Shown here one piece after another: positions 10,789-30,637 of a DNA stretch of 64,000 bases (position 1 is its first letter; every line of letters begins with the position of its first letter). Origin of the DNA: Escherichia coli 042 (lineage in GTDB: Bacteria > Pseudomonadota > Gammaproteobacteria > Enterobacterales > Enterobacteriaceae). The notes beneath the pieces are model-generated. The model made no database searches and was not told where the DNA came from. It saw only the letters and a program-made list of their open reading frames with translations. The position numbers and the translations under genes are program-made. The stretch lies in the NCBI RefSeq assembly GCF_000027125.1, contig NC_017626.1; one strand, given 5' to 3'.

Positions 10789-10884
10789 TCAAATAAACCA
10801 GCCAAATCTCATAGAGATAAGAGTAAACAAACCAACAGCAGCAAAGACATTTATCAGTACTACAGTTCTACTGGAAACATTCAT
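10789..10884 (-). CDS. yncL: Small membrane protein YncL (31 aa)
   Basis: Manual translation MNVSSRTVVLINVFAAVGLFTLISMRFGWFI; the plus-strand track ORF 10723-10920 is antisense to it. Confidence 0.8.
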   Translation of the reverse strand: MNVSSRTVVLINVFAAVGLFTLISMRFGWFI

Positions 10885-11078
10885 TTTTGCCACCTTTTAT
10901 CATTGCCCCTATGTGTATAGTACGGGTTAAGAAAATCCGCAATAATACTCATTCTGAAGATGGATAAGGGCAAGTTGCTGTTTGATGATTTTTTCTCAAA
11001 CTGGTGAAAAAACTTGATGCACGTCAAAAAATGACGCATATTTGCGCGCGTTTTATTCATCTGGCTGGACGCCCGTAC

Positions 11079-11252
11079 ATGTCTCTCTATCAACACATGC
11101 TTGTTTTTTATGCGGTTATGGCAGCAATCGCATTTCTTATCACCTGGTTTCTTTCTCACGATAAGAAACGCATCCGTTTCTTAAGCGCCTTTCTGGTGGG
11201 GGCAACATGGCCGATGAGTTTCCCGGTGGCGCTGTTGTTTTCACTGTTTTAA
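11079..11252 (+). CDS. ortT: Orphan membrane toxin OrtT (YdcX), 57 aa
   Basis: MSLYQHMLVFYAVMAAIAFLITWFLSHDKKRIRFLSAFLVGATWPMSFPVALLFSLF; track ORF begins at an upstream ATG. Confidence 0.8.
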   Translation: MSLYQHMLVFYAVMAAIAFLITWFLSHDKKRIRFLSAFLVGATWPMSFPVALLFSLF

Positions 11253-11337
11253 ATCTTACTCACTGGCTTGACGGCACCACACAGACTTATATCATTTGGA
11301 TGAATCGATAAATTTCACAAGTGGCTAAGGAGAAAGT

Positions 11338-11571
11338 ATGTCGCATCTGGATGAAGTCATCGCGCGCGTGGATGCCGCGATTGAAGAGAGCGTCATTGCC
11401 CATATGAACGAATTATTAATCGCCCTGAGCGATGACGCGGAGTTAAGTCGGGAAGATCGCTATACCCAGCAGCAGCGTTTGCGCACCGCTATTGCTCATC
11501 ATGGTCGCAAGCATAAAGAAGATATGGAAGCGCGCCACGAACAGTTAACCAAAGGCGGTACCATCCTCTGA
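11338..11571 (+). CDS. ydcY: Uncharacterised protein YdcY
   Basis: 77 aa ORF, conserved position between ortT and ydcZ. Confidence 0.8.
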   Translation: MSHLDEVIARVDAAIEESVIAHMNELLIALSDDAELSREDRYTQQQRLRTAIAHHGRKHKEDMEARHEQLTKGGTIL

Positions 11572-12021
11572 TTAAAATGAGCGTCTGGCCACCAGCCAGG
11601 CGCCAACCACAAGTAAAATTGCGCCACAAATTGGGCCGATCAACGCCCGAAGTGGTACGCCATGGCTGCGGAAGATATCCAGCACCAGACCGCCAATCAG
11701 CTGGCTGGCGACCAGTACTGCAATAGTTGTTGCCGCTCCCACATTCTGATATCCGCTGATACTGGCGAAGACAAAAAACGATCCAAGCAAGCCAGGTATA
11801 AGTGTCCACCAGCGCACGCTGGACACCAGTTCACCAAACCCCTCCATACCTTGTTTAAACCACAAAATAGAAACGAACAGCACAATTCCTACCAAAGAGT
11901 TCAGCAACATGGCGATGAGAATGGTAGAGGAGCTCTGGGTGATGCGCACCATCAGCGTGTTTTGCACCACCAGACCAATTCCGGCGGCAATCAAAAAAGC
12001 AAGGGTAAGCGACTGATTCAT
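11572..12021 (-). CDS. ydcZ: Inner membrane protein YdcZ (DMT-like)
   Basis: 149 aa, four predicted TM helices. Confidence 0.85.
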   Translation of the reverse strand: MNQSLTLAFLIAAGIGLVVQNTLMVRITQSSSTILIAMLLNSLVGIVLFVSILWFKQGMEGFGELVSSVRWWTLIPGLLGSFFVFASISGYQNVGAATTIAVLVASQLIGGLVLDIFRSHGVPLRALIGPICGAILLVVGAWLVARRSF

Positions 12022-12536
12022 CCAATCGCGTCCGGTTCAGTGCGCTCGTCGAGTTGCAACTGCATAAATGTCAGATCCAGCCAGCGCCCAAATTTAGTGC
12101 CTACCTGCGGCATTTGCGCGGTGACGACAAATCCCAGCGACTGGTGGAGATGCAGCGAAGCCTGATTTTGCGATTCGATCCCCGCGACCATGACATGCTT
12201 CCCGCAATCCCGCGCTTCATCAATCAATCGGCTTAACAATTTACGCCCCAGACCTTTGCCCTGATGATCGGGATGGACATAAACCGAATGTTCCACGGTA
12301 TGGCGAAAACCATCGAAACTACGCCAGTCGCCAAACGAGGCATATCCTGTAACGACGCCATCTTCTTCACTCACCAGCACCGGATAACCTGCTATGGTCC
12401 GCGCTTCAAACCAGGCAATGCGGTTATCTGCATCCACCGTTTGGTCATTCCAGATAGCCGCCGTATACAACACGGCGTGGTTATAAATTTCCGCAATGGC
12501 AGCACAGTCGGCTTTGCGGGCAAAACGGATGGACAT
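12018..12536 (-). CDS. mnaT: GNAT-family L-amino acid N-acyltransferase
   Basis: 172 aa GNAT fold (acetyl-CoA motif QGKGLGRKLL); overlaps ydcZ start by 4 nt. Confidence 0.85.
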   Translation of the reverse strand: MSIRFARKADCAAIAEIYNHAVLYTAAIWNDQTVDADNRIAWFEARTIAGYPVLVSEEDGVVTGYASFGDWRSFDGFRHTVEHSVYVHPDHQGKGLGRKLLSRLIDEARDCGKHVMVAGIESQNQASLHLHQSLGFVVTAQMPQVGTKFGRWLDLTFMQLQLDERTEPDAIG

Positions 12537-12716
12537 GTCTGGCCTCGATTAAATAATGATGATGACGTTATCAATACTATCGAAAACAGCCCGAAGCAAC
12601 GGATTCCTCGATGAAATTATTGCGTGTTGCAGAGGGGATGTGACGGCTGCAAACAAAACCAATCCCGTGAGCCTGCTACTATTGATCGATTCATGCCAAA
12701 AGCACAGGAGAGCATT

Positions 12717-13754
12717 ATGGGGCAACAAAAACAGCGTAATCGACGTTGGGTTCTGGCCTCGCGTCCGCATGGCGCGCCGGTTCCGGAGAATTTCCGTCTT
12801 GAAGAAGATGATATCGCCACACCGGGTGAGGGACAGGTGTTACTGCGCACAGTTTATTTGTCACTGGACCCGTATATGCGTGGACGTATGAGCGATGAGC
12901 CATCTTATTCACCGCCGGTTGATATTGGCGGCGTGATGGTCGGCGGCACGGTGAGCCGTGTCGTGGAGTCGAATCATCCTGATTATCAGCCTGGCGACTG
13001 GGTGCTGGGCTACAGTGGATGGCAGGACTATGACATATCCAGTGGTGATGATCTGGTGAAACTTGGCGATCATCCGCAAAATCCATCGTGGTCGCTGGGT
13101 GTGCTGGGGATGCCAGGCTTTACCGCTTATATGGGGCTGCTGGATATCGGTCAGCCCAAAGAGGGCGAAACGCTGGTGGTAGCTGCGGCGACAGGACCAG
13201 TGGGGGCGACGGTGGGTCAAATCGGCAAACTTAAAGGTTGCAGGGTGGTGGGGATAGCCGGTGGCGCGGAAAAATGCCGCCATGCTACCGAGGTGTTAGG
13301 CTTTGATGTTTGTCTTGACCATCACGCGGATGATTTTGCCGAACAACTGGCGAAAGCGTGCCCAAAAGGCGTTGATATCTATTATGAAAACGTGGGCGGT
13401 AAAGTATTTGATGCGGTGCTACCGTTACTTAATACATCTGCGCGCATTCCCGTCTGCGGCTTAGTGAGCAGCTATAACGCTACAGAGCTACCACCCGGCC
13501 CGGATCGTTTACCTCTGCTGATGGCTACGGTGCTGAAAAAACGTATTCGCTTGCAAGGATTTATTATCGCTCAGGATTATGGTCACCGCATCCATGAGTT
13601 TCAGAAGGAGATGGGGCAATGGGTGAAAGAGGATAAAATCCACTACCGCGAAGAAATTACTGACGGTTTAGAGAATGCGCCACAGACATTTATCGGCCTG
13701 CTGAAGGGTAAAAACTTCGGCAAAGTGGTGATCCGCGTGGCGGGTGATGATTAA
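12717..13754 (+). CDS. curA: NADPH-dependent curcumin/dihydrocurcumin reductase (MDR superfamily)
   Basis: 345 aa from ATG at 12717 (track begins at an upstream ATG); Rossmann motif AAATGPVGATVGQ. Confidence 0.85.
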   Translation: MGQQKQRNRRWVLASRPHGAPVPENFRLEEDDIATPGEGQVLLRTVYLSLDPYMRGRMSDEPSYSPPVDIGGVMVGGTVSRVVESNHPDYQPGDWVLGYSGWQDYDISSGDDLVKLGDHPQNPSWSLGVLGMPGFTAYMGLLDIGQPKEGETLVVAAATGPVGATVGQIGKLKGCRVVGIAGGAEKCRHATEVLGFDVCLDHHADDFAEQLAKACPKGVDIYYENVGGKVFDAVLPLLNTSARIPVCGLVSSYNATELPPGPDRLPLLMATVLKKRIRLQGFIIAQDYGHRIHEFQKEMGQWVKEDKIHYREEITDGLENAPQTFIGLLKGKNFGKVVIRVAGDD

Positions 13755-13951
13755 AGATACGACGGCGGCGTAAGCCGCCATAAAAATCCAGGCAAAAAGC
13801 TTATTTTCAGCTTTAATTAACTAACCACGTCATTGTTCTGCTGCTAATAACAACAAAGGTGAGTGGTTTATGATTATTCACTTTAATACCCCAGGTGAAC
13901 TCCTTCTGCCATGCAGGCAGGGTTGGACAGAAAACACGCGAAGGAATTAAA

Positions 13952-14617
13952 ATGCCTGGAACGGAAAAAATGAAACATGTCAGTTTGACTCTGCAGGTTG
14001 AGAATGACCTGAAACATCAGCTTAGTATTGGCGCACTAAAACCTGGCGCACGCCTGATTACTAAAAATCTGGCGGAGCAATTAGGTATGAGTATTACACC
14101 TGTGCGTGAAGCATTATTACGTCTGGTTTCGGTGAATGCGCTTTCTGTCGCACCAGCGCAAGCATTTACAGTTCCGGAAGTGGGGAAACGTCAATTAGAC
14201 GAAATCAATCGGATCCGCTACGAGCTGGAATTAATGGCAGTTACTCTGGCTGTTGAAAACCTCACCCCGCAAGACCTGGCGGAACTCGAGGAATTGCTCG
14301 AGAAATTACAGCAGGCGCAAGAAAAGGGCGACATGGAACAAATCATTAATGCGAACAGGCTATTTCGCTTAGCGATTTATCATCGTTCAAATATGCCCAT
14401 CCTGTGTGAGATGATTGAGCAACTGTGGGTCAGGATGGGACCTGGTTTACATTATCTCTATGAAGCGATTAATCCAGCGGAATTACGGGAGCGTATAGAA
14501 AACTATCGTCTATTACTCGCCGCGTTAAAAGCAAAAGACAAAGAGGGATGCAGACATTGTCTTGCTGAAATTATGCAACAAAATATTGCTATTTTATACC
14601 AGCAATACAATCGTTAA
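13952..14617 (+). CDS. mcbR: GntR/FadR-family transcriptional regulator
   Basis: 221 aa from internal ATG; N-terminal GntR HTH. Confidence 0.85.
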   Translation: MPGTEKMKHVSLTLQVENDLKHQLSIGALKPGARLITKNLAEQLGMSITPVREALLRLVSVNALSVAPAQAFTVPEVGKRQLDEINRIRYELELMAVTLAVENLTPQDLAELEELLEKLQQAQEKGDMEQIINANRLFRLAIYHRSNMPILCEMIEQLWVRMGPGLHYLYEAINPAELRERIENYRLLLAALKAKDKEGCRHCLAEIMQQNIAILYQQYNR

Positions 14618-14620
14618 AGT

Positions 14621-14643
14621 AAATGCCCGGCAAATACCGGGCA
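14621..14643. terminator. Hairpin between convergent mcbR and yncD
   Basis: GCCCGG-CAAATA-CCGGGC stem-loop; T-rich flank on the yncD strand. Confidence 0.5.
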
Positions 14644-14652
14644 TCAAGGTAA

Positions 14653-16755
14653 TTACTCAAATCGCCATGCAATATTCATGCCGACACCATAATTTCGCCC
14701 GGGCGCAGGTTCGTAATATCGCCCGTTTGACTCATTGACAATGACAGAACCAACGTATTCTTTATCGAATAAATTATCGACACGACCAAATAAATCCACA
14801 GTTAAATTGTGGTAATTGTATTTATACCCGGTGAATAAGCCGACGAGAGTATAAGACGGCGCTTTGGCCGTATTTTCATCATCTGCCATAATATCGCCCA
14901 TATAACGCGCTTCCGTACCTGCATACCAGCCATCCTCCGGTACATAACCTATCGACGCAAAGCCCATATTACGGGCGATCCCTGGCATCCGATTACCGTT
15001 ACAATCCTGTTCATTGCAAACATTGCTGCGATAGGTCGCATCGAGCCAGGTCCAGGACGCTTTTACACGAAAATCTCCCGCGAAACGTTGATCCCATGCC
15101 AGCTCAGCGCCTTGACGACGGGTCTTTCCGGCATTTTTGTAAGTCGTACGCCCACCGCTACTGCTATCGACAACAATTTCATCATCGGTGTCGGTCTGGA
15201 ACAATGCGAGACTAAGCAGCCCATCACCAATACGCGTTTTACTGCCGATCTCAATTGTATCGTTGGTGGATGGTTTTAAACCAAAGTTCATACCGCTTTG
15301 ACCGTCAGCACGATAAGACAGCTCATTAATCGTCGGCGTTTCAAAACCTCGCCCGGCTGCCAGATAGATATTCCAGGCATCGGTCATTGCATATTTTAAC
15401 GAACCGGCAGGTAGCCATTTGTGATAACTGGCATCACCGCTGTCATCGCCGTTACCCGGAGTAACGTAATGGTCGTTGGAATCAAACCATACGGAGCTGT
15501 AGCGCACGCCAGCATCCAGCGACAGTTTTTCGCTCAGCTGCCACTGTGTCTGCAAATAGGGATCGACGTTCCACATCAGATTGCGTTCGTCACGGCGCAA
15601 CTCACCTTTTTGCCCGTATTCCGGCACGCCGCTATTCAGGCGGAAGTTATTGTAGCCTTTGCGATTTTCACTCATGTTTTCGTAGTTCAGGCCGGTAGTG
15701 AACGTGAGCGGAACGCCCAGCTCGCCACGGTGTGTCCAGCGGCTGTCTATCCCCTGATAATGGCGTTGCAGAGTAATCACGCCGCCCGCATGCGACGGGT
15801 TAAGTTGTGGTGCCATCGGGATTGACTGGTACTGGGTCGTTTCTCGCTCCCCGGCATACATCATCACACTCATATCATCTTGTGCGCTCAGGCTACGTTC
15901 ATAGCGCAACCCAGCCTGAGTTTGCTTGATGGTTTTTCGCGTGTCGTACTGTTCAGCGCGTGGCGCTTGTTGCGGATTCGCCTTCCATTCTGCTTCGGTT
16001 AGCCCACCTGGGTCATCTGCTTTGATATCCACACTATTGAAAATCAGGCTTAATTTGCTGGCGTCATCAATGCGTACGCCCAGTTTGGCATTGGCTAAAT
16101 TTTTCTGTGCGCCACTATGATCACGATAGCCGTGGGTCGTAAAGCGCGTGGTTGAGACGGTGTAATCGACATCGCCAGGCTGAGTGCCGTCGCCCATTGC
16201 GCCTGTTGCTTTCAGCCCATAGCGCCAGCTGCCAAAACTGCCGTAGTAACTACTGGCTTCAATGGTTGGTGGCTGTTGTCCGGTCTGGGTGATGACATTC
16301 ATTACACCGCCAGACGCGTTGCCATACAGAGCAGAGAAGGGGCCGCGCAGCACTTCCACATTTTGTACACTGCTTAAATCGATGTTGGATGTTTGCCCTT
16401 GTCCGTCGGGCATGGTGGCGGGAATACCGTCCACATACAGGCGAATACCGCGAATTCCGTAAGTGGAGCGGGAGCCAAATCCGCGAATCGACAGCTGTAA
16501 ATCTTGCGCATAGTTCTGCCGGTTTTGTACCTGCAAACCAGGCACGCTGGTCAGTGATTCGGACAAGTTAATGCGCGGTGTTGCCAGGCGCATCTCCTCG
16601 CCATCCACCACGCTCACGGCTGCTGGGGTATCCAGTTCTGAAACCACCTGCGGCGTGGCACTGACAATCATGGTCTGTTCATCAGCGGCAAAAACAACAG
16701 GGGAAAGGACAAGCAGTGCGGGCAAAACGGTCTGTCGGACGGAAAAAATCTTCAT
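14653..16755 (-). CDS. yncD: TonB-dependent outer-membrane receptor
   Basis: 700 aa from ATG at 16755 with signal peptide; ends in RFE; track ORF is N-terminally over-extended. Confidence 0.9.
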   Translation of the reverse strand: MKIFSVRQTVLPALLVLSPVVFAADEQTMIVSATPQVVSELDTPAAVSVVDGEEMRLATPRINLSESLTSVPGLQVQNRQNYAQDLQLSIRGFGSRSTYGIRGIRLYVDGIPATMPDGQGQTSNIDLSSVQNVEVLRGPFSALYGNASGGVMNVITQTGQQPPTIEASSYYGSFGSWRYGLKATGAMGDGTQPGDVDYTVSTTRFTTHGYRDHSGAQKNLANAKLGVRIDDASKLSLIFNSVDIKADDPGGLTEAEWKANPQQAPRAEQYDTRKTIKQTQAGLRYERSLSAQDDMSVMMYAGERETTQYQSIPMAPQLNPSHAGGVITLQRHYQGIDSRWTHRGELGVPLTFTTGLNYENMSENRKGYNNFRLNSGVPEYGQKGELRRDERNLMWNVDPYLQTQWQLSEKLSLDAGVRYSSVWFDSNDHYVTPGNGDDSGDASYHKWLPAGSLKYAMTDAWNIYLAAGRGFETPTINELSYRADGQSGMNFGLKPSTNDTIEIGSKTRIGDGLLSLALFQTDTDDEIVVDSSSGGRTTYKNAGKTRRQGAELAWDQRFAGDFRVKASWTWLDATYRSNVCNEQDCNGNRMPGIARNMGFASIGYVPEDGWYAGTEARYMGDIMADDENTAKAPSYTLVGLFTGYKYNYHNLTVDLFGRVDNLFDKEYVGSVIVNESNGRYYEPAPGRNYGVGMNIAWRFE

Positions 16756-20554: not shown

Positions 20555-21093
20555 CAATAATGCCGGAGGTTAATGTTAATGAATCACTGGCGTAATTAAC
20601 TGGATATCCATTTGTTTGCTATGAATAGTAATTAAAGTTGGTACAACTATTTATATGATTGATGTAATTTCGTTTTTTATATGAAATATCAATTTAATAT
20701 AATCCGAAAATAAAACATCTTTTCGCATGTAGAGAAACATGTCGATATGATAGTGCAGTGCAGATCATGTCATCAGGGTAGGGCGGTAGCGTATTTAATC
20801 AGGGAAAGATTACGCAACGCTGCTTTTTTGTATTGAACGATTCGCATTTTATGTTTAAAAATTGCGATATTCCTTATTTCCTGAAGCTGTTTTTATTGCT
20901 TATACATGATCAAATACTCCTTACATAATTAAGGAGAACAAAATGGAACTTAATACACGCCAACAATTTGTATTACTTAAATAGACCAGTGAAGGTACGC
21001 ATCAGAACATCCGGTGAAGTGATTAATATTTCGTTGAATATTTCTCCCGATTTTTGAAACCTGCTGCTGTAGAAATTCTGAACAGGAGGAATT

Positions 21094-21378
21094 ATGCCTT
21101 TAGCAGCCAAACTCACCGACAAAGGCACCCAGCACGACGGTTATTACGAGACCGTCATCACCGCCGGGTCATCCACCGTCTTTATCGATGGTCTTCCCGC
21201 AGCCCGTCAGGGAGATCCGCTGACGCCGCATGCTAAACCGAAGCATCCCCCTCATCCCCGTAAAATCGCCAGAGGTTCTTCAACCGTCTTTATTGACGGC
21301 CTGCCCGCCGCCAGAAGCGGTGATGCTGTTGACTGCGGCGGCGTGGTTATTGGTGGCGGTACGGTAAATATAGGCTGA
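21094..21378 (+). CDS. PAAR-repeat protein (T6SS spike-tip)
   Basis: 94 aa; duplicated SSTVFIDGLPAAR(Q/S)GD motif typical of PAAR; strong AGGAGG RBS; 18 nt upstream of vgrG. Confidence 0.75.
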   Translation: MPLAAKLTDKGTQHDGYYETVITAGSSTVFIDGLPAARQGDPLTPHAKPKHPPHPRKIARGSSTVFIDGLPAARSGDAVDCGGVVIGGGTVNIG

Positions 21379-21396
21379 TATGTCTGAGAGGTATTT

Positions 21397-23802
21397 ATGT
21401 CCTTAAAAGGTCTTCGCTTTACGCTGGAGGTTGACGGCCAGGAGCCGGACACCTTTGCAGTGGTGAATTTCAGGTTAATCCAGAACCAGTCATATCCGTT
21501 TGTGATGAGTGTGGATGTTGCCAGCGACTCTTTTATGCAGACGGCGGAGATGCTGCTGGAGAAGAAGGCGACACTGACCATCTGGCAGGGCGCAGTGGCG
21601 CAGCGTTATGTCACCGGCGTGGTGGCGGGTTTTGGCATGCAGGAGAATAACGGCTGGCAGATGCGTTATCACCTGCGTATTGAGCCGCCGTTATGGCGGT
21701 GCGGGCTGCGGCAGAACTTTCGTATCTTCCAGCAGCAGGATATCCGGACGATATCGGCCACGTTACTGAACGAGAACGGCGTCACGGAGTGGACGCCGCT
21801 GTTTTATGAGGACCATCCGGCGCGGGAGTTCTGTGTCCAGTACGGGGAGTCGGACCTGGCGTTTCTGTCCCGGCTGTGGGCGGAGGAGGGTCTTTTCTTC
21901 TTTGAGCGGTTTGCGGCGGACAGTCCGGAGCAGAAGCTGACGCTGTGCGACGATGTGGCGGGGCTGTCACAGGCGGGGGAGTTTCCGTTTAACCCGGACA
22001 CATCGGCAGGTGCGGAGACGGAGTGTGTCAGTATGTTCCGTTATGAGGCGCATGTCCGCCCGTCATCGGTGCAGAGCCAGGATTACACCTTTAAGGTGCC
22101 GGACTGGCCGGGGATGTATGAGCAGCAGGGTGAGAACCTGAACGGACAGCTGGAGCAGTATGAGATATTTGATTATCCGGGAAGGTACAAGGATGAACAG
22201 CACGGCAAGGATTTCACGCTGTACCAGATGGAGAGCCTGCGCAGTGATGCGGAAAAGGCCACAGGGCAGAGTAATTCGCCGAAGCTGTGGCCGGGAACGC
22301 GGTTTATGCTGACGGGGCATCCGCAGAAGATGCTGAACCGTGAATGGCAGGTGGTACAGAGCATACTGTCAGGAAACCAGCCGCAGGCGCTGCACGGCAG
22401 CCAGGGAAAGGGAACCACGCTGGGCAATCAGTTAGAGGTGATACCGGCGGACCGGACGTGGCGTCCACGGCTGCAAAACAAACCGAAGGTGGACGGGCCA
22501 CAGAGCGCCATCGTCACCGGTCCTGCGGGAGAGGAAATCTTCTGCGATGAACATGGACGGGTACGGGTGAAGTTCCACTGGGACCGTTATCACGGGATGA
22601 CGGAGGCGAGTTCATGCTGGGTGCGGGTATCGCAGGCGTGGGCGGGGCCGGGGTTCGGTAACCTGGCGATACCACGGGTGGGTCAGGAGGTGATAGTGGA
22701 CTTCCTGAACGGCGACCCGGACCAGCCGATAATCATGGGGCGGACGTACCATGAGGACAACCGTTCGCCGGGCGACCTGCCGGGAACGAAGACGCAGATG
22801 ACCATCCGGTCAAAAACCTATAAAGGAAGCGGATTTAACGAGCTGCGGTTTGAAGACGCCACCAGTAATGAGCAGGTGTATATCCATGCCCAGAAGAACA
22901 TGGATACGGAGGTGCTCAACGACCGGACAACGGATGTGAAACATGACCATACGGAAACCATCGGGAACGACCAGAAGATAACGGTGGTGAAGGGGCAGAC
23001 GGTTCAGGTCGGGACCAGAAAAGAAGGGGGCCACGACCAGAGTATCACGGTGGCGAACGACCGGTGCATCACGGTACGTAATGACCAGACGCTGCAGGTG
23101 ACGAATGACCGGACGGTGAGCGTGAGTAATGATGACGGCCTGTACGTCAGAAATGACCGTAAAGTGACGGTGGAAGGGAAGCAGGAGCATAAGACGACGG
23201 GGAACCATATCAGTCTGGTGGAGGGAAAGCACAGCCTGGTGGTGAAGGGGGACCTGGCGAGGAAGGTGAGTGGCGCGCTGGGGATAAAGGTGGACGGGGA
23301 TATCGTGCTGGAGAGCAGCAGCCGGATAAGCCTGAAGGTGAGTGGCTCGTTTGTGGTCATCCATTCAGGGGGCGTGGACATCGTCGGGCCGAAAATCAAT
23401 CTCAATAGCGGCGGTAGTCCGGGGACGCCGGTGCCGGCGCTGCAACCGGCGGTGCTGAAGACACTGGGGGATGAGAAGAGTGGTGATGGCAGTGATTCCG
23501 GAGAAGAAAATGAAGACTCTGGAGGGAACTGCGTGACCGGAAGTGGTGGTGATGATCGAGGTGACGATGAGGATGAACCTGAAAAATATACTCTCCAGTT
23601 CCATTTTACAGACGATGACGGGATACCGTATTCAGAAACCCGCTACATTGCCTTCTTTGAGGATGGCACGCAGACCCGCGGAGAAACGGATGAAGAGGGG
23701 TATACAGAGCGTTTTTTTGTATCTAGCAAACATGAAATTAAAGTGAAGTTGTTATTTGCGAATGATGATTTTCTCTCAATGGAAGGACACTATGGACGAT
23801 AA
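21397..23802 (+). CDS. vgrG: Type VI secretion spike protein VgrG with acidic linker and C-terminal extension domain
   Basis: 801 aa; N-terminus MSLKGLRFTLEVDGQEPDTFAVVNFRL…IWQG…RIFQ matches VgrG gp27/gp5 core; C-terminal repeat-rich beta-helix; Gly/Asp/Glu-rich linker then ~70 aa terminal domain. Confidence 0.85.
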   Translation: MSLKGLRFTLEVDGQEPDTFAVVNFRLIQNQSYPFVMSVDVASDSFMQTAEMLLEKKATLTIWQGAVAQRYVTGVVAGFGMQENNGWQMRYHLRIEPPLWRCGLRQNFRIFQQQDIRTISATLLNENGVTEWTPLFYEDHPAREFCVQYGESDLAFLSRLWAEEGLFFFERFAADSPEQKLTLCDDVAGLSQAGEFPFNPDTSAGAETECVSMFRYEAHVRPSSVQSQDYTFKVPDWPGMYEQQGENLNGQLEQYEIFDYPGRYKDEQHGKDFTLYQMESLRSDAEKATGQSNSPKLWPGTRFMLTGHPQKMLNREWQVVQSILSGNQPQALHGSQGKGTTLGNQLEVIPADRTWRPRLQNKPKVDGPQSAIVTGPAGEEIFCDEHGRVRVKFHWDRYHGMTEASSCWVRVSQAWAGPGFGNLAIPRVGQEVIVDFLNGDPDQPIIMGRTYHEDNRSPGDLPGTKTQMTIRSKTYKGSGFNELRFEDATSNEQVYIHAQKNMDTEVLNDRTTDVKHDHTETIGNDQKITVVKGQTVQVGTRKEGGHDQSITVANDRCITVRNDQTLQVTNDRTVSVSNDDGLYVRNDRKVTVEGKQEHKTTGNHISLVEGKHSLVVKGDLARKVSGALGIKVDGDIVLESSSRISLKVSGSFVVIHSGGVDIVGPKINLNSGGSPGTPVPALQPAVLKTLGDEKSGDGSDSGEENEDSGGNCVTGSGGDDRGDDEDEPEKYTLQFHFTDDDGIPYSETRYIAFFEDGTQTRGETDEEGYTERFFVSSKHEIKVKLLFANDDFLSMEGHYGR

Positions 23803-24583
23803 TAATCAAACTTCTGGACAACCAAAGCCAGAGCCAGAAGAATGTGTGAAAGAGCAAAAAATAACTGATCATTTTAAAATAATGATTGATAAGGCTCGTA
23901 AGGCACAAAAGTTGGTTTTGATAAAAAGAGCAGATGATCTTTTGAGATGGGGAGCACAGGAGGAATATGATTTCAGTAAGATCTTTGGTGTTAAAGGAAA
24001 TAAGGAGGTTAATATAAGAAAATATGGACATAATACAGGTAGGCGCATGAATGCTAGATTTCTTATGATGGATGGTGTGAGAAGATTAATGATTATAGCT
24101 AATGATTTAACAATGAGCAGTTTTATAAATTATACAGGTTGTAATGAATTTGCAGCATTCGTCAGCCCAAGTAAGGATATGCCCTATATAATTAACATAG
24201 GCGCAAAATTTGAGTATAGAGATGGCAAAAAAAATCCAGTAACGGGAAAGGATTCTCATGTTGCTACTTTATGTCATGAAATGTCTCATATTCAGTGGTA
24301 TTATGGGGATAATAAAAAAGGTGGTATGTGGTCACAGGATTATACAACTACTGATAAATATTCAACGTGCAAAGAGGATGAAGTTTCATATGACGAACAT
24401 ATCCGTATTGCAACTAAACTGATCTCTAAACAAAAAGATCAAATATTCGAGAATGCATATAACATAGAAAGATATTTTGAAATAAGATTAATTGAAAGTG
24501 AGATAGACTCGATTAATGATGAAATATTAAGCAATTCAGTTAAGAAAAAAATAGCGGAATTAGAAAAAGCACTTCTCCATTAA
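23792..24583 (+). CDS. Candidate T6SS cargo effector with HExxH zinc-metallopeptidase-like motif
   Basis: 264 aa from ATG at 23792, overlapping the vgrG stop by 11 nt; GGAAGGA RBS; HEMSH at 24275-24289; ~30% GC by eye; no family recognised. Confidence 0.5.
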   Translation: MDDNNQTSGQPKPEPEECVKEQKITDHFKIMIDKARKAQKLVLIKRADDLLRWGAQEEYDFSKIFGVKGNKEVNIRKYGHNTGRRMNARFLMMDGVRRLMIIANDLTMSSFINYTGCNEFAAFVSPSKDMPYIINIGAKFEYRDGKKNPVTGKDSHVATLCHEMSHIQWYYGDNKKGGMWSQDYTTTDKYSTCKEDEVSYDEHIRIATKLISKQKDQIFENAYNIERYFEIRLIESEIDSINDEILSNSVKKKIAELEKALLH

Positions 24584-24606
24584 CTAATAAGTCGAGAAAT
24601 ATATTA

Positions 24607-25428
24607 ATGCTGCAAGCTATAAAAAAAATCATAATAATGACAATCGTAAATATTATATTTTTCTATTCCTTTCAATCGACTGCGGATGAAATGGTTTTAA
24701 TAAAAAAATACGGGTTTGGGCTTGAGAGAGATATCAAAGGAAGGCCATTAATTTATCCTATCGAAAATTATGATGAGTGTAAGAAAAAATGCAATCATAT
24801 GAATTATATAGCGGATGTCAATGCTCAATTAGCTATGAGTAAAAAAAATAACAGGATTTTTGCTAACATAACCTTTACTAACAATAGCTCTACCACGTAT
24901 TTTTTTTCTAAATATTACCTACCTATGAAAGTAAAAGATGGAAAAGGAGATGAATATGATGCGATATGCAAAAAACCATTCAGAATCAACTCTGGGAATA
25001 TCACGTTGGACTACTTAGGTGGTTCATGTCCTTTTGAAATTAATACGAATCCTGAACGGTGGAATACTATTAAACCAGGTCGTAGTTTTTTGTTGAGTAT
25101 AACCTTAAATGATATGTATGCCTTTATACCAGGAGATAATTATTATTTTATAAAATCATCTGGCTATAAATTTGTTAATGACAAGTGGTTTACACTCAAA
25201 TCAATCAATAATATTTTTCTTTATTTTTTAAATTTAAAAATTAATTGTGCTGATGATTTTTTTGATATTAATAATTTTACTACATGTGATAATTTGTTAT
25301 TAGATGAAAAAAAACACTTTTTTATTAATCAGTTATGGGCAATTGAGGATGAAAAAAATTCTATTTACGTCACCCCTGATGAAATTTCTATAAGTATAGA
25401 CGGCGATAACTTAAAGTTGCCATATTAG
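24607..25428 (+). CDS. Candidate cognate immunity protein (periplasmic, signal-peptide-bearing)
   Basis: 273 aa, AT-rich; N-terminal hydrophobic segment IIIMTIVNIIFFYSFQSTA; several Cys; directly downstream of the effector candidate. Confidence 0.45.
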   Translation: MLQAIKKIIIMTIVNIIFFYSFQSTADEMVLIKKYGFGLERDIKGRPLIYPIENYDECKKKCNHMNYIADVNAQLAMSKKNNRIFANITFTNNSSTTYFFSKYYLPMKVKDGKGDEYDAICKKPFRINSGNITLDYLGGSCPFEINTNPERWNTIKPGRSFLLSITLNDMYAFIPGDNYYFIKSSGYKFVNDKWFTLKSINNIFLYFLNLKINCADDFFDINNFTTCDNLLLDEKKHFFINQLWAIEDEKNSIYVTPDEISISIDGDNLKLPY

Positions 25429-25447
25429 GAATCTGTGAAAGAACAAG

Positions 25448-25936
25448 GTGCGCCGCTTTTTTGTACTAAATAATTCGCATTTTAGTCACGGCAGAGAAGA
25501 AATCCATCTTCATATTGTTTGCGATGTCCCTGATGAACTTATTGATTTCACGTTTGAATGGAAAGGTCAGAAGAAATTATGCGTGGCAGTCTCCTTTTGG
25601 TCAATAATAGCAGAACAAAAGAAAGAGCCAGAAATGACGGTCAGATATTATATCAGTTCTGCTGATTTAACCGCAAAAAAGTTCGCCACAGCGATACGAA
25701 ATCACTGGCACGTGGAGAATAAGCTGCACTGGCGTCTGGACGTGGTAATGAACGAAGACGACTGCAAAATAAGAAGAGGAAACGCCGCAGAATTATTTTC
25801 AGGGATACGGCACATCGCTATTAATATTTTAACGAATGATAAGGTATTCAAGGCAGGGTTAAGACGCAAGATGCGAAAAGCAGCTATGGACAGAGACTAC
25901 CTCGCGTCAGTCCTTGCGGGGAGCGGGCTTTCGTAA
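25448..25936 (+). pseudogene. ISAs1-family (H-repeat-associated) transposase, C-terminal fragment
   Basis: C-terminal ~140 aa resemble H-repeat-associated proteins ([30 protein letters not shown]…); N-terminal two-thirds absent. Confidence 0.7.
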
Positions 25937-26044
25937 TCTTGCCCTGGCGATCGAATAGCGCAGATGACGGTGCTCTAAATTTGAATCTAATAAGCCGGTG
26001 TTATTTTTCATCCACTATTAAAATCTTGACACAACGAGGCAACA

Positions 26045-26605
26045 ATGAAAAAAAGCAAAAAAATTAAAACAATGAACCATCAAAATAATAGCGGGATACA
26101 AAATCAACCAGACTATCACATCGAAATAGAAAGAAAAAATATGGTAAGATTGCTTGATGAACGTATTGATAAAGTTTACGGTTCATTGCTAGGACCAATG
26201 AAAAAGAAAAATATAGATAAAATACGTCATTTTACACTTGATGTAATGGTGTTTATTCTTGACACGAACCCTCGTGTTTGTAATAAATTATCCAGGGAAA
26301 TAATATCTTTAGCGCAAAATACCTTCATTGAAAAAAACGTTAATTTTTCAACTTTTAATAATGAACAGCATAGAATAAGGGAGTATATGAATGAAGGTGG
26401 TGGAATACGATGGTTTACATGGGATAACCCCGAGATATCTTTTGTTCGTGCATCTTTTGGCCTTTTTGTCAAAATGGAAACAAAAGGTGATCATGAACAT
26501 ACACTAAGTGACACATTTCTTCAGATTGTTGAGTGTGTTAATTTAAATATAGGACTTATTGCAAAAGATGAACTGGTAAAAATCATCAATAAACACTTTA
26601 TGTAA
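26045..26605 (+). CDS. Hypothetical protein (AT-rich accessory ORF, no recognisable domain)
   Basis: 186 aa ORF with GAGG RBS; low GC; no TM segments. Confidence 0.4.
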   Translation: MKKSKKIKTMNHQNNSGIQNQPDYHIEIERKNMVRLLDERIDKVYGSLLGPMKKKNIDKIRHFTLDVMVFILDTNPRVCNKLSREIISLAQNTFIEKNVNFSTFNNEQHRIREYMNEGGGIRWFTWDNPEISFVRASFGLFVKMETKGDHEHTLSDTFLQIVECVNLNIGLIAKDELVKIINKHFM

Positions 26606-26964
26606 AAATATACTTCTGTATGAAGTTATAATAATACAGTGAAAATCATCAAATTATTAATTAATGATGCTCTTTGTTATTATTTACTTTTTACAATTGA
26701 ATCAGGGGTTTTATTTTCTGTAGTAAAGTTGTATTTTTGCTAAAGGTGATAAAGTACAGGTGTTTATATTAAATTAGAACTCCCCTTAATTATCATAAAT
26801 ACAAAGAGGTGAAAACATGCGGGGGTGTTTTCGTTAAATAATACCATGGTGAATTAATAACATGCTATCAGTGATATACATATTTTCTCTAACAAAGTTT
26901 TAGTAAAATTACGCGTAGTAAGAAGATTCCGCCAAAGATTCCATATAATAATATTAAGGTTGTT

Positions 26965-27600
26965 ATGAATAAAGGTAATAGATTACAACAGTTAGAAGAT
27001 GCGTGTCGTGATATTATTAAAATTAACATGTGGTATGAACTCCCCGATTATGTATTTTTTTCAATATCTGACACCATCGATGGGACGAGTGATGAATTCG
27101 CAATAAATGTGTATAAAAATATCGATAAAAGTCTTCTTGAAATATTATTGCATCCATCTGTTTTACTGTCAGTTGTTGAGTCCTTACAAAGTAATACTAT
27201 AGCTGAGTATATCGTGAAATTGTCTGAAATAGAGATGAATTATGACGACTTGCTAATATCGGATGTTAAATCATGTCTTTTTATCAACTATGGATTCAAT
27301 AACAGTGAATCGGTTGCGCTATTTAATAAGATTTACCGCGAATTAAAAGATATTGTAAAATCATCAAGAGTACATATAGATCATGAGAAAGATATTTTTG
27401 ATGGCCTTAATCAAATCTTGGCTTTTTCCGATAATAATAAACATGAGTATTTTTTATATATAAAGGCATATTGGCTCAGTTTATACTTTTGTGAAATTTC
27501 ACAGAACGTGAGAGAAAGAGATAAGTTGTCATTTTATTATAATGAATTTTCTGTCCGATTTCCTAATGTTGTCCTATATCCGTCATGCTACAAATTGTAA
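26965..27600 (+). CDS. Hypothetical protein (AT-rich accessory ORF, no recognisable domain)
   Basis: 211 aa ORF with AAGG RBS; low GC. Confidence 0.4.
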   Translation: MNKGNRLQQLEDACRDIIKINMWYELPDYVFFSISDTIDGTSDEFAINVYKNIDKSLLEILLHPSVLLSVVESLQSNTIAEYIVKLSEIEMNYDDLLISDVKSCLFINYGFNNSESVALFNKIYRELKDIVKSSRVHIDHEKDIFDGLNQILAFSDNNKHEYFLYIKAYWLSLYFCEISQNVRERDKLSFYYNEFSVRFPNVVLYPSCYKL

Positions 27601-27725
27601 GGCTTGGCACCTGAAATTCATTGTTAATTCGAGACGCTTGATTGTCCACTATATCAAAACAGTCATACCTCGGAATTTTCTCGCATTAGTCCATACGGTA
27701 TTCAATATTCGCAACTGTGCCCTGA

Positions 27726-27926
27726 AATAAAAAACTGCAAAACTGCTTTTTCTTGACCTGTCCCAATCACGCAAGACTACTTTTAGTAGAGACCTCCAGC
27801 TATGTCGATTTTAGTGCCGCCCGCGCATTTTATACAAAACAGGGCTTTATTAATGAAGCTATAATACGCAATTACTATGATGTTGGTGAGGATAAATTAA
27901 TCTTCACTAAAAATATGCAATCGTGA
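27726..27926 (+). pseudogene. GNAT acetyltransferase C-terminal remnant
   Basis: Manual translation …DFSAARAFYTKQGFINEAIIRNYYDVGEDKLIFTKNMQS*; in-frame stop just upstream, no plausible start. Confidence 0.35.
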
Positions 27927-27992
27927 GATAAAATATGCTTTTAACTCATATTGAAACATTGCTTAAGCAACTTGGTTGCTGCATATGATTCT

Positions 27993-28562
27993 TTAGCCCG
28001 CGGTGACTCGCTTGCCGCTGGTAACAAACGTGCCAGCACCTAAGTGATGTAGTGTATTGAGTTTATCATCATCAAACTGCCAGCGGCCTTCGACAAATAC
28101 CCGTGCGTCTGCCGCTGCTGATACCACCTCGCCAAACAGCGTGTCGTATTTTTCTTGCGCGGAAGTCGCAGGTAGCAAGCGGCACTCCATCCACGCCAGA
28201 CATTTTTCCTCGACCAGAGGCAAACCAAGTACCGGACCTTTCACTACTGGAATGCCGTAGCAATTAAATTTATCTTCTTCACGACCCGACACACTTCCCA
28301 CCGCCCACGTCCAGTTAGTTGCTGCAACGCCCGGGATAACGATGCCAAATTTACCGTTACGTTCAATCAACTCCCTGGTCCATGTCGATTTATCTACCAC
28401 GATCGCAACACGTGGCGGTTCAAACTCTACCGGCATCGACCAGGCCGCAGCCATCACATTACGTCGCTGTGATTTTTCATCAAAAGTTGTTATCAAAATA
28501 GTTGGGCCATGATTTAACAGACGGCTGGCATGGTGTAATTCGACAGGGATGAATCGGCTCAC
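27993..28562 (-). CDS. yddH: Flavin reductase-like protein
   Basis: 189 aa, flavin reductase-like fold; GTG start. Confidence 0.85.
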   Translation of the reverse strand: MSRFIPVELHHASRLLNHGPTILITTFDEKSQRRNVMAAAWSMPVEFEPPRVAIVVDKSTWTRELIERNGKFGIVIPGVAATNWTWAVGSVSGREEDKFNCYGIPVVKGPVLGLPLVEEKCLAWMECRLLPATSAQEKYDTLFGEVVSAAADARVFVEGRWQFDDDKLNTLHHLGAGTFVTSGKRVTAG

Positions 28563-28736
28563 GGTATCGCCTCGCTAAGAAGGGGGTTTTAAAAGCGTAG
28601 CTCGTAACGCTATAAGTAACGAAATTAACGGGATTGGCGATTTGCGAACGTGATGCATGTCCGCGATCGCACAAAATAGCCGGTGCGGCGTCTATTCCAG
28701 GTTATAAGTTGAGAAAACCACTAAGGGAAACGCCTG

Positions 28737-29582
28737 ATGACGCCCATTCTGAATCATTATTTTGCCCGTATTAACTGGTCGGGAGCTGCTGCGGTCAATA
28801 TTGATACGCTGCGTGCATTGCACCTGAAACACAATTGCACCATTCCATTCGAAAACCTCGACGTTTTGCTGCCAAGGGAAATACAGCTTGATGATCAATC
28901 GCTGGAAGAGAAACTGGTGACAGCCCGTCGTGGTGGTTACTGTTTTGAGCAGAATGGCGTGTTTGAGCGGGTGTTACGCGAGCTGGGGTTTAACGTTCGC
29001 AGCTTGTTAGGGCGCGTAGTGTTATCAAATCCGCCAGCATTACCGCCGCGCACCCATCGTTTGTTGTTGGTGGAACTGGAAGGGGAAAAATGGATTGCTG
29101 ATGTCGGTTTCGGTGGACAGACGCTAACCGCGCCGATTCGTTTAGTTCCCGATCTCGTGCAGATCACGCCACACGGAGAGTATCGGTTGTTACAGGAGGG
29201 TGATGATTGGGTGTTGCAGTTTAATCATCATCAGCACTGGCAGTCGATGTACCGTTTTGATCTCTGCGAGCAGCAACAAAGCGATTATGTAATGGGCAAT
29301 TTCTGGTCTGCGCACTGGCCGCAGTCGCATTTTCGCCATCATTTGCTGATGTGCCGCCATTTGCCGGACGGCGGCAAGCTGACACTGACCAATTTTCATT
29401 TTACCCATTATGAAAATGGGCACGCGGTGGAGCAGCGAAATCTACCAGATGTGGCGTCGTTATATGCCGTGATGCAGGAACAGTTTGGTCTGGGCGTAGA
29501 TGATGCGAAACATGGCTTTACTGTGGATGAGTTAGCGATGGTGATGGCGGCGTTTGATACGCACCCGGAGGCGGGAAAATAA
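28737..29582 (+). CDS. nhoA: Arylamine N-acetyltransferase (N-hydroxyarylamine O-acetyltransferase)
   Basis: 281 aa NAT family with catalytic Cys in RRGGYCFEQN. Confidence 0.9.
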   Translation: MTPILNHYFARINWSGAAAVNIDTLRALHLKHNCTIPFENLDVLLPREIQLDDQSLEEKLVTARRGGYCFEQNGVFERVLRELGFNVRSLLGRVVLSNPPALPPRTHRLLLVELEGEKWIADVGFGGQTLTAPIRLVPDLVQITPHGEYRLLQEGDDWVLQFNHHQHWQSMYRFDLCEQQQSDYVMGNFWSAHWPQSHFRHHLLMCRHLPDGGKLTLTNFHFTHYENGHAVEQRNLPDVASLYAVMQEQFGLGVDDAKHGFTVDELAMVMAAFDTHPEAGK

Positions 29583-29585
29583 TTT

Positions 29586-29660
29586 ATGTCAGGTTGCCGG
29601 ATGCGGCGTAAACGCCTTATCCGGCATACATAGACCTGATAAGCGAAGCGCATCAGGCAA
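29586..29660. repeat. REP (repetitive extragenic palindrome) units between nhoA and yddE
   Basis: GCCGGATGCGGCGTAAACGCCTTATCCGGC … GCGCATCAGGC palindromic units. Confidence 0.7.
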
Positions 29661-29665
29661 CGGTT

Positions 29666-30559
29666 TCAGAATTCAATTGCCCATTCGGCATGAAACAAAA
29701 TCACCGCTGTGCCAGAAATGGTGACTTTCTCCGGTTGGTTATTGCGAATTGTCACCGTCACTTCAATCACGCCGTCACGCCCCAATGCGCGCCCCTGATG
29801 GCCTTTAACATGCAACACGTTGCCATCGTGGGGCAATACGTTGTGATGTACCAACCATGCACCCATCGGGCCATTGGCATTGCCAGTCACCGGATCTTCC
29901 ACAATACCAATCGCAGGCGAGAACATGCGACCATCGGTTTCATTTTTGCCTGGGCGGATCTGGAACGGGAAGAAACCATTGCAGCCAATCTGTTTGCTGA
30001 TAGCGGTCAGCGCAGCAAGATCAGGCGAAAGGGCGTCGATATCCACTTCTGGTTTCAGTGGGATCATCACTTTTGAGTGTCCTGTGGTTGCCACCTGAAT
30101 TGGCAAGCCTGACAAAATATCGTCCTCAGTGAGATGAAGCGCGTTGATAATCGCTGCACGTGTTTCACCTTCCAGCGGTGGCTCAAAGCCCGGCGTACCT
30201 TGTTCCAGCGAAATACGATAATCATCGTTGTGATTTTCGATAGTCACGCGATGTTTTCCTGACAGTGACGTTTGCCAGACCGTGCAATTTCCTAAACCTA
30301 ACACCTTCGCACGTACATAGTGCGCAGCTACTGTCGCGTGACCACAAATCGGCACTTCAACTGTTGGCGTAAAGTAGCGGATGCGCACATCGCTGTCGTC
30401 GCTGTGCAGCAGAAAAGCAGTTTCCGAATGACCTAATTCGCGGGCGATAAGCTGCATTTGCGCTTCACTGAGATTATCGGCGGGGAAAACAACACCGGCA
30501 GAATTGCCGCGAAACGGTTGTGAGGTAAAAGCATCGACGTGGTACACCTGCGGTTTCAT
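29666..30559 (-). CDS. yddE: PhzF-family isomerase
   Basis: 297 aa PhzF/DapF-like fold. Confidence 0.9.
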   Translation of the reverse strand: MKPQVYHVDAFTSQPFRGNSAGVVFPADNLSEAQMQLIARELGHSETAFLLHSDDSDVRIRYFTPTVEVPICGHATVAAHYVRAKVLGLGNCTVWQTSLSGKHRVTIENHNDDYRISLEQGTPGFEPPLEGETRAAIINALHLTEDDILSGLPIQVATTGHSKVMIPLKPEVDIDALSPDLAALTAISKQIGCNGFFPFQIRPGKNETDGRMFSPAIGIVEDPVTGNANGPMGAWLVHHNVLPHDGNVLHVKGHQGRALGRDGVIEVTVTIRNNQPEKVTISGTAVILFHAEWAIEF

Positions 30560-30637
30560 TAACGTTCTCCTGTGGCTGGAGAACTATCATAGCCTGCAAG
30601 TGGCCGGAGAGCGAAGGGCTATCCGGCCAGGGTGAAA

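Follow-up and report, generated by a model that had tools for sequence, protein, structure and literature searches.

Remnants of an ISAs1 transposase gene and a GNAT acetyltransferase gene, with two probable orphan immunity genes between them, at the RhsE rearrangement hot spot of Escherichia coli 042

The interval described here lies in a 64,000-nucleotide stretch of the Escherichia coli 042 chromosome (contig NC_017626.1), hereafter the window, and forms the right side of a rearrangement hot spot of E. coli, yncG–yddH (RhsE); it displays ordinary genome decay. Genes b1455–b1461 are given as an Rhs region, with H-repeats at the tips of Rhs elements (PMC3032704). Two dead gene remnants, of an ISAs1 transposase and a GNAT acetyltransferase, enclose two intact orphan ORFs, which we call orf186 and orf211. 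The window has the same flanking core genes as the K-12 ydcC–pptA–yddH region (yncG on the left; yddH, nhoA, yddE, and narV on the right), and both have an ISAs1 element left of yddH. K-12 carries pptA, whereas the window lacks this gene and has orf186–orf211–ΔGNAT in its place. The interval is 100% identical to E. coli C4 and to many other RefSeq genomes, in which the gene order is yncG–PAAR–VgrG–M35–hyp–ISAs1(pseudo)–hyp–hyp–yddH–nhoA. The features of the interval and its borders are as follows, in window coordinates.

20800–20953, + strand: second ISAs1/H-repeat remnant, with left inverted repeat (CAGGGAAAGAT...), 5′ untranslated region, and nt 1–11 of the transposase CDS
25437–25484, + strand: what is left of the ISAs1 left end, degenerate and with its left inverted repeat, at 83–87% identity to the corresponding ends of intact copies
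25448–25936, + strand: 162-codon ORF with GTG start, reading from left-end sequence across the junction at 25484 into the transposase frame
25484–25947, + strand: 3′ part of ISAs1 (463 bp), encoding transposase residues 228–378, with stop at 25934–25936 and right inverted repeat ...TAATCTTGCCCTGG
25948–25974, no strand: 27-bp stretch between the right end of ISAs1 and the onset of collinearity with strain PT62
26045–26605, + strand: orf186, intact AT-rich ORF, probable orphan immunity gene for a Rhs/T6SS deaminase-like C-terminal toxin
26965–27600, + strand: orf211, intact AT-rich ORF, probable orphan immunity gene for an EndoU-type toxin
27762–27926, + strand: 3′ remnant of a GNAT acetyltransferase gene, residues ~105–155 of 155, with stop at 27924–27926 and junction at 27761–27765
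27927–27992, no strand: spacer from the GNAT stop to the yddH stop, within which the accessory region ends when compared with K-12
27993–28562, − strand: yddH, flavin reductase family, the first conserved core gene on the right, convergent with the GNAT fragment

Judged from its alignment with intact copies, 25437–25947 is an ISAs1/H-repeat element from which 776 internal bp have been deleted. The loss was internal and no mere 5′ truncation, because the left end of the element is retained. This left end is 47–48 bp long, begins with an inverted repeat (25437–25450) that reads CTGTGAAAGAACA instead of CAGGGAAAGATCA (three mismatches), and has diagnostic variants in common with the UTI89 remnant at the same site. 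The 3′ part is 95–97% identical at the DNA level to K-12 ydcC and other intact copies, and its right inverted repeat ends at 25947. At the deletion junction CGCATTTTA is joined to GTCACGGCAGAG, with 1 nt of microhomology. No target-site duplication was seen around either ISAs1 remnant when the flanks of 25437/25947 and of 20800 were inspected. Within the ISAs1 family, the element corresponds to the E. coli H-repeat (ISEc1; K-12 ydcC, H-rptE of the RhsE element): over its last 151 codons it matches YdcC at 94% identity, it has the same right inverted repeat (...ATCTTGCCCTGG) and a recognisable but degenerate left one, and remnant and H-rptE occupy the same chromosomal locus (RhsE, b1455–b1461). 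Unlike intact ISEc1/ydcC, the remnant is without 776 internal bp, the DDE_Tnp_1_assoc domain, and most of the DDE domain, and is a dead derivative.

A preliminary description of this DNA had reported a truncated ISAs1 transposase at 25448–25936 of which only the C-terminal third remained. The remnant is real, with a match far beyond chance, and the ORF aligns with residues 226–378 of the 378 residues of K-12 YdcC (94% identity, E = 7e-105, BLASTP); the retained share is 151 of 378 residues (40%) rather than a third. Its first 12 codons (25448–25483) derive from the left end of the element and not from transposase coding sequence. The ORF passes the NCBIfam model NF033564 (transpos_ISAs1) with 117.3 bits (E = 7.5e-34; curated cut-off 70 bits), covering only profile positions 201–314 of 314, and Pfam DDE_Tnp_1 (PF01609) is covered only at profile positions 139–200 of 200. 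Full-length YdcC contains DDE_Tnp_1_assoc at residues 9–94 and DDE_Tnp_1 at residues 102–343 (profile 3–200). DDE_Tnp_1_assoc (PF13808) was absent from the 162-codon ORF in the Pfam search, and this region falls inside the 776-bp deletion; going by the motifs, the segments of both aspartates (IAIDGK and ITTDAMG in YdcC) would also have been deleted. Without DDE_Tnp_1_assoc at its N-terminus and the first two-thirds of the DDE domain, the remnant is unable to encode a transposase. In the identical genomes, PGAP annotates 25475–25936 as a pseudogene ('ISAs1 family transposase, incomplete, missing N-terminus'). As the 162-codon ORF is free of internal stops, a truncated protein may be translated from it; presumably, neither the ISAs1 nor the GNAT remnant is expressed.

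The preliminary description had further placed a stop-interrupted GNAT C-terminus at 27726–27926, just before yddH. The fragment itself is genuine, its match being likewise far beyond chance: the last 51 residues of this translation match residues 105–155 of the 155-residue GNAT of strain PT62 (WP_040063150.1) with 92% identity (E = 1e-34, BLASTP), and the PT62 gene has the same position as the remnant, tail-to-tail with yddH. 'Stop-interrupted' is imprecise, however. DNA homology to the GNAT gene begins at ~27762–27765, not at 27726, and the TGA at 27723–27725 sits in sequence unrelated to GNAT; the gene is thus truncated by deletion and not interrupted by a stop codon. Window positions 27765–32000 correspond to 11251–15499 of the PT62 locus (L007) and 25975–27767 to 9001–10787, from which it follows that 463 bp are missing at the junction; on the right, collinearity continues through yddH. 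Three nucleotides at the junction (CAC) fit neither of the PT62 flanks exactly, which limits the precision of the breakpoint to about ±3 nt. Compared with the PT62 gene, residues 1–104 and 157 bp of upstream sequence are deleted, the acetyl-CoA-binding motif included: motif A (defined as Q/R-x-x-G-x-G/A) is HQRQGVGHLL at residues ~82–91 of the intact protein, the breakpoint falls at ~residue 104, and the motif is absent from the window. The intact protein passes Pfam Acetyltransf_7 (PF13508; 34.9 bits vs 27) and Acetyltransf_1 (PF00583; 29 bits vs 20.7), whereas the fragment alone has no Pfam match at E ≤ 0.1, with neither of these two models satisfied. The 51 remaining codons are unable to make an acetyltransferase. 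PGAP provides no annotation for the remnant in RefSeq.

The nearest solved relative of the PT62 GNAT is PDB 2r7h, a 'putative D-alanine N-acetyltransferase' (E = 1e-13), followed more distantly by RimI-like enzymes. A role as toxin of a type II toxin–antitoxin system (TacT/AtaT-like) or as a defence gene was considered and rejected, the best solved and NCBIfam relatives being 2r7h and RimI and not toxin–antitoxin toxins. No antitoxin ORF was found upstream of the intact PT62 gene, where the 293-bp gap holds only ORFs of ≤28 codons, and the GNAT had no PADLOC match.

The two ORFs between the remnants matched no family above threshold in Pfam, NCBIfam, or PADLOC. Homologues of orf186 (60–72% identity) are located 3 bp downstream of Rhs-CT/T6SS effector genes, and the two proteins encoded upstream of such homologues have a C-terminal region of ~436 residues in common that is 80% identical. 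A homologue of orf211 (63% identical) is located 17 bp downstream of an ORF with an EndoU_bacteria domain (PF14436), in a DUF2169/PAAR T6SS cluster. In view of these gene neighbourhoods, earlier Rhs/T6SS toxin modules most likely left orf186 and orf211 behind as orphan immunity genes, whose products would act in immunity. Orphan toxin/immunity modules have been described at Rhs, CDI, and T6SS loci (Poole et al. 2011, PMC3150448). Like these modules, orf186 and orf211 are small, AT-rich, and situated in a Rhs/vgrG locus, with homologues directly after polymorphic toxin domains. Unlike in orphan toxin/immunity modules, there is no toxin-coding remnant upstream of either ORF: tblastn searches of the window and PT62 with the EndoU, Rhs-CT, and T6SS-effector neighbours gave no hit below E = 0.1. 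The G+C content is low (26–35%) over 25.9–27.8 kb, which fits old horizontally acquired cargo. Homologues of orf211 carry the name 'aminopeptidase', for which there is no family support.

Comparison with PT62 and K-12 places the borders of the accessory region differently. Homology to PT62 stops exactly between 20799 and 20800, and the second ISAs1 remnant at 20800–20953 (93% identity to intact ISAs1 copies at their left ends) forms the left edge of the PAAR–VgrG island. The right boundary had been put near 27.95 kb, which agrees with the comparison to K-12, where it falls between the GNAT stop at 27926 and the yddH stop at 27993 (27.93–27.99 kb; the K-12 match was extended back to 27959 by BLAST, with high identity from ~27985). 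Relative to PT62 it does not apply, as the PAAR–VgrG island then comprises 20800–25974 and ends at ~25.95–25.97 kb. The orf186–orf211–GNAT block at 25975–27926 is collinear with PT62 (orf186 at 92.8%) and, as read from the alignments, was present at the locus before the PAAR–VgrG island. The accessory region is nested, with the T6SS island inside an older orphan-immunity/GNAT segment that is itself an alternative to pptA. A pptA 3′ remnant in 27927–27992 was rejected; the similarity is not significant, with 212 of 2,000 shuffles attaining the local alignment score (18). An apparent 'frameshift' in the M35 effector gene was likewise rejected as a sign of decay: an additional A in a poly-A run at 24545 (+1) alters only the last residues and leaves the HEMSH motif intact.

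We consider it very probable that this part of the RhsE hot spot consists of two remnants killed by deletion, ISAs1 and GNAT, with two probable orphan immunity ORFs between them. An ISAs1/H-repeat element once located downstream of a PAAR–VgrG–M35 effector/immunity cassette would have lost 776 internal bp by illegitimate recombination, so that the left end now adjoins the last 463 bp. The 155-codon GNAT gene, tail-to-tail with yddH in the GNAT-type allele, would have been cut back by a deletion of 463 bp (microhomology of no more than 4 nt) that removed the promoter region and the first ~104 codons. Each deletion presumably occurred as a single event. The presumed ancestor, with an intact ISAs1 between a 273-residue ORF and orf186, was found in 0 of 5,426 complete E. 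coli genomes, the set used for all allele counts, at ≥80% coverage of a chimeric query.

Other histories of the ISAs1 remnant are conceivable. It could be a hybrid formed by homologous or illegitimate recombination of two ISAs1 copies, an old resident as source of the left end and a younger copy with which orf186–orf211 arrived. Such an origin, which we regard as unlikely, would account for the lower identity of the left end to intact copies (83–87% vs 95–97% for the right part) and for the joining of the same right part to differing downstream flanks among strains; yet at 48 bp the left end is too short for this difference in identity to count, and the join connects nt ~27 (from the aligned start) with nt ~804, positions of the element that are not homologous, over just 1 nt of microhomology, so that homologous exchange alone could not have yielded the junction. 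It is far less probable still that the T6SS island or another element was inserted into an intact ISAs1 in a single event, making the remnant a simple 5′ truncation. With a second ISAs1 left end at the far left of the island, 20800–20953 and 25484–25947 could in principle be the halves of one split element, but we rejected this pairing as the two are not adjacent in element coordinates: the left piece ends at nt 11 of the transposase gene and the right piece starts at codon ~228, leaving ~670 bp missing. In addition, a second and differently diverged left end, common to UTI89, directly precedes the right piece (25437–25484), and in strains of the Rhs type each of these two positions is occupied by a separate, intact ISAs1 copy.

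The 162- and 57-codon ORFs might instead be intact short genes with conserved full-length homologues of their own. Both frames are open, the ISAs1 piece without an internal stop, and databases hold 57-residue 'hypothetical proteins' that are identical or near-identical to the GNAT piece (P0001, P0002). These 57-mers, however, are the same E. coli fragment, mechanically annotated, and every longer homologue of the GNAT piece extends N-terminally into a normal GNAT fold; the fragment lacks the acetyl-CoA motif and has a TTG start only. The ISAs1 piece aligns just to the last 40% of 378-residue transposases, opens with 12 codons of non-coding IS-end sequence, and is marked as a pseudogene by PGAP. 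The alignments largely refute this alternative, to which we assign hardly any probability. The alignment and synteny comparison with the K-12 region and other strains that the preliminary description had called for identified the pieces as fragments of 378- and 155-residue proteins. A sequencing or assembly artefact is the least probable explanation of all. ISAs1 is multicopy (median 4–5 places per genome) and a collapsed repeat might create false junctions, but many complete genomes that were sequenced independently have all 2.8 kb of the interval with 100% identity.

The 2.8-kb interval was recovered from 175 genomes at ≥80% coverage, with 176 records at ≥99% identity. At the locus, the pptA allele is the majority form (4,653 of 5,426 genomes, 86%), and the GNAT-type allele is a minority form (660–667 genomes, 12%) that is nearly always damaged. 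The GNAT deletion junction of the window occurs in 237 of the 5,426 genomes and its ISAs1 deletion junction in 218, the latter in two distinct right-flank contexts. The open 162-codon C-terminal ORF of ISAs1 is conserved in 218 genomes. Near-full-length GNAT DNA is present in 433 of the 5,426 genomes, mostly as the UTI89-type pseudogene, and full coverage including the upstream region was found in 17, of which 11 are PT62-like. The gene appears intact in only ~0.2% of complete genomes. At least five different lesions damage the GNAT allele across genomes. Besides the 463-bp deletion of the window, the independent ones comprise a nonsense mutation in JNE, a nonsense mutation with an additional frameshift in UTI89, loss of 370 bp between imperfect direct repeats in L013, and deletions extending from the 273-residue ORF in L012 and, as a secondary event, from inside ISAs1 in L011. 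That the yddH-adjacent GNAT is actively selected against in E. coli, or that the 162-codon ISAs1 ORF is kept as a truncated regulator of other ISAs1 copies, appears to us highly improbable. If true, loss of GNAT could reflect a cost of the enzyme over neutral decay, for example harmful acetylation once the toxin/immunity context had gone.

Repeated insertion and deletion at this hot spot, as the preliminary description had suggested, is borne out by many structural alleles at the same locus across genomes. K-12 carries rhsE–yncI–ydcC–pptA; PT62 has neither T6SS island nor ISAs1 and contains small ORFs, orf186, orf211, and an intact GNAT gene; UTI89 carries the PAAR–VgrG island, a different ISAs1 remnant, and the doubly damaged GNAT. 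In JNE112863 and 2012C-4502, vgrG–Rhs is situated between intact ISAs1 copies and GNAT has a premature stop. ISAs1 or IS1 abuts different points of orf211 in PCN033 and AST240, and in FDAARGOS_144 the same deleted ISAs1 as in the window abuts a 59-bp pptA tail. Three more deletion alleles were found in metagenome or SRA contigs. Multiple ISAs1 copies at the locus would offer portable homology and IS-adjacent deletion endpoints, the likely mechanism by which the same deleted ISAs1 came to lie on different right-hand flanks in different strains. The finding is minor on its own; it confirms a classic rearrangement hot spot at RhsE and fixes the breakpoints of two pseudogene remnants. For annotation, it identifies a GNAT remnant that is unannotated in RefSeq and is sometimes called a 57-residue 'hypothetical protein' by mechanical ORF callers. 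The structural alleles of the locus form a compact set that may serve as lineage markers in population genomics.

The locus is the region b1455–b1461, listed as the RhsE 'rearrangement hot spot' (PMC3032704), and the corresponding interval in K-12 holds yncH, an rhsE pseudogene, ydcD, yncI, ydcC (H-repeat/ISAs1 transposase) and pptA. The 2.8 kb around the two remnants studied here, of an ISAs1 transposase and a GNAT acetyltransferase, are 100% identical in many complete E. coli genomes (at least 80% covered in 175 genomes; at least 99% identity in 176 records). The annotated order in strain C4 is yncG, PAAR, VgrG, M35 peptidase (flagged as frameshifted), hypothetical, 'ISAs1 family transposase, incomplete, missing N-terminus', hypothetical, hypothetical, yddH, nhoA, yddE, narI. 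To its left the island is flanked by the core gene yncG, which is annotated as frameshifted in UTI89-type (L004 2924-3524) and FDAARGOS_144-type (L021 1-469) strains but is intact in window-type sequence. We recovered both remnants noted in the preliminary description, with corrected coordinates and mechanisms. The features considered are:

20800–20953, second ISAs1/H-repeat remnant (left inverted repeat, 5′ UTR and first 11 nt of the CDS), left start of the island
25448–25936, transposase ORF of 162 codons with a GTG start
26045–26605, orf186, intact and AT-rich
26965–27600, orf211, intact and AT-rich

The transposase ORF aligned to residues 226–378 of the 378 residues of YdcC (94% identity, E=7e-105) and scored above the NCBIfam ISAs1 cut-off with a profile span of only 201–314 of 314. 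Its match to Pfam DDE_Tnp_1 was confined to the final third of the profile; full-length YdcC also contains the N-terminal DDE_Tnp_1_assoc domain. DNA alignment pairs window 25484–25947 with 10501–10964 of the K-12 locus (L002) at 95% identity, and window 25458–25484 with L002 9698–9724, i.e. the left end of that K-12 element. Several aligned intact copies start with CAGGGAAAGATCA and end with ...TAATCTTGCCCTGG. Of these ends, the window retains a degenerate left one, starting at 25437, and a well-preserved right one, finishing at 25947. This makes the remnant an element with an internal deletion of 776 bp, at a junction of CGCATTTTA with GTCACGG (microhomology of 1 nt). Only a C-terminal fragment of the transposase is left, as first described, but alignment with intact copies revises the retained portion from a third to about 40% and adds the preserved left end; the ORF opens with 12 codons of non-transposase sequence. 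This pseudogene is already annotated. The remnant could possibly be a hybrid of two copies, because its left end is more diverged from intact copies (83–87% identity) than its right part (95–97%); a chimeric query for an intact ISAs1 ancestor at the exact site of the remnant gave no match. The junction of the internally deleted element was found in 218 of 5,426 genomes and in two contexts, the window type and an FDAARGOS_144 type (L021 7267-9030), in which the right end of the deleted ISAs1 runs directly into the 3′-terminal 59 bp of pptA, followed by yddH. Upstream in FDAARGOS_144, the M35 gene has given way to another effector cassette and an intact ISAs1 and survives as a C-terminal orphan of 273 nt.

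When the 27726–27926 frame was translated and searched against databases, all matches were E. coli proteins, some of which are N-terminally longer and carry GNAT Pfam domains. Strain PT62, which has no T6SS island at this locus, encodes an intact GNAT of 155 codons tail-to-tail with yddH that passes PF13508 and PF00583 and resembles PDB 2r7h (E=1e-13). The window fragment represents residues 105–155 of this protein (92% identity, E=1e-34). Two blocks are collinear at the DNA level, window 25975–27767 with PT62 (L007) 9001–10787 and window 27765–32000 with L007 11251–15499, and the gap in L007 coordinates therefore represents 463 bp missing from the window, namely 157 bp upstream and about 104 codons of GNAT. 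The junction at 27761–27765 has microhomology of at most 4 nt with 3 nucleotides unmatched, and the acetyl-CoA motif HQRQGVGHLL maps upstream of the breakpoint. A C-terminal GNAT remnant is thus present, but it is deletion-truncated rather than stop-interrupted, as the frame is opened by a TGA (27723) in GNAT-unrelated sequence. It is a routine remnant without PGAP annotation. E. coli R32_14_1F encodes an intact paralogous GNAT of 154 residues (L003 7689-8337), with 85% nucleotide identity to the fragment in the window. Its gene is located within a flagellar gene cluster, next to those for a glycosyltransferase and a lysine-N-methylase, and ISAs1 remnants follow it immediately, a setting which suggests that GNAT travels with ISAs1-associated cargo.

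Homology of the window to PT62 ends at 20799 and resumes at 25975, which puts the right end of the T6SS island at about 25.95–25.97 kb relative to PT62. The intervening segment 20800–25974 contains PAAR, VgrG, the M35 effector and a 273-residue ORF, with the deleted ISAs1 at its end. Since the second ISAs1 remnant is placed exactly where PT62 homology stops, ISAs1 remnants in like orientation stand at both ends of the PAAR–VgrG island. By this collinearity, the orf186–orf211–GNAT block predates the island at the locus. Relative to K-12, homology returns only at the yddH end (BLAST match reaching back to 27959, high identity from about 27985), in agreement with the originally proposed right boundary near 27.95 kb; the preliminary interpretation is supported, subject to the nesting of the accessory region. 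No significant similarity backed a suspected vestige of the pptA 3′ end in 27927–27992. The M35/aspzincin-like effector gene (23791-24583) has one additional A in a poly-A run at 24545 compared to UTI89, which alters only the C-terminal tail (…KKKIAELEKALLH versus …KKK); in identical genomes PGAP reports a frameshift for this gene, yet its HEMSH metalloprotease motif is intact.

The G+C content at orf186 and orf211 is 26–35%, and neither belongs to a family in Pfam, NCBIfam or PADLOC. Genes homologous to orf186 (60–72% identity) are found 3 bp 3′ of a gene for a 1,481-residue T6SS effector (Citrobacter portucalensis) or a 440-residue Rhs C-terminal ORF (E. coli), whose C-terminal regions are 80% identical and look deaminase-like by their HGKCAE...CxxC pattern. 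For orf211, a homologue with 63% identity is located 17 bp 3′ of a PF14436 EndoU_bacteria ORF, which belongs to a DUF2169/PAAR cluster in Pseudocitrobacter faecalis; neither Pfam nor NCBIfam supports the name 'aminopeptidase' given to homologues of orf211. Orphan immunity genes have been described for Rhs and CDI loci (PMC3150448). Given these neighbourhoods downstream of toxin ORFs, and with no toxin remnant detectable upstream of either gene within the window, orf186 and orf211 are best read as putative orphan immunity genes, and probably are such. In place of the PAAR–VgrG island, PT62 has three small ORFs of unannotated function and without Pfam match (90, 108 and 129 residues; L007 7849-9000), which may be further orphan immunity genes.

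Among 5,426 complete genomes, 4,653 (86%) carry the pptA allele and 660–667 (12%) GNAT-type sequence. The 463-bp deletion junction of the window with its upstream flank was present in 237 genomes and near-full-length GNAT DNA in 433, overwhelmingly as the UTI89-type pseudogene (in-frame stop and 1-nt deletion). Full-length GNAT plus upstream region was found in 17 genomes, of which 11 are PT62-like with an annotated GNAT and four have a JNE-type premature stop (126-residue product). The locus is a textbook hot spot with no sign of a new kind of system; the sole, mildly unusual point is that the yddH-adjacent GNAT has been independently inactivated so often, which might mean that an accessory gene is decaying neutrally or that GNAT is weakly selected against. 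Repeated insertion and deletion at the site, as initially suggested, plus exchange of flanks, are strongly supported by the many structural alleles across assemblies. One metagenome/SRA contig (L013) has a 370-bp GNAT deletion between imperfect 20-bp direct repeats, AATGAAGTCTGG...TTAATG and AATGATGTCTGG...TTAATG (L013 1925-1990; PT62 L007 10780-10800, 11150-11175), with a left breakpoint at most 5 bp from that of the window. On two further contigs, a deletion fuses the 273-residue ORF to GNAT codon ~110 (L012), and a secondary deletion starts within an intact ISAs1 and stops 15 nt short of the junction of the window type (L011). In PCN033, JNE112863 and AST240, orf211 is abutted at differing points by ISAs1 or IS1.
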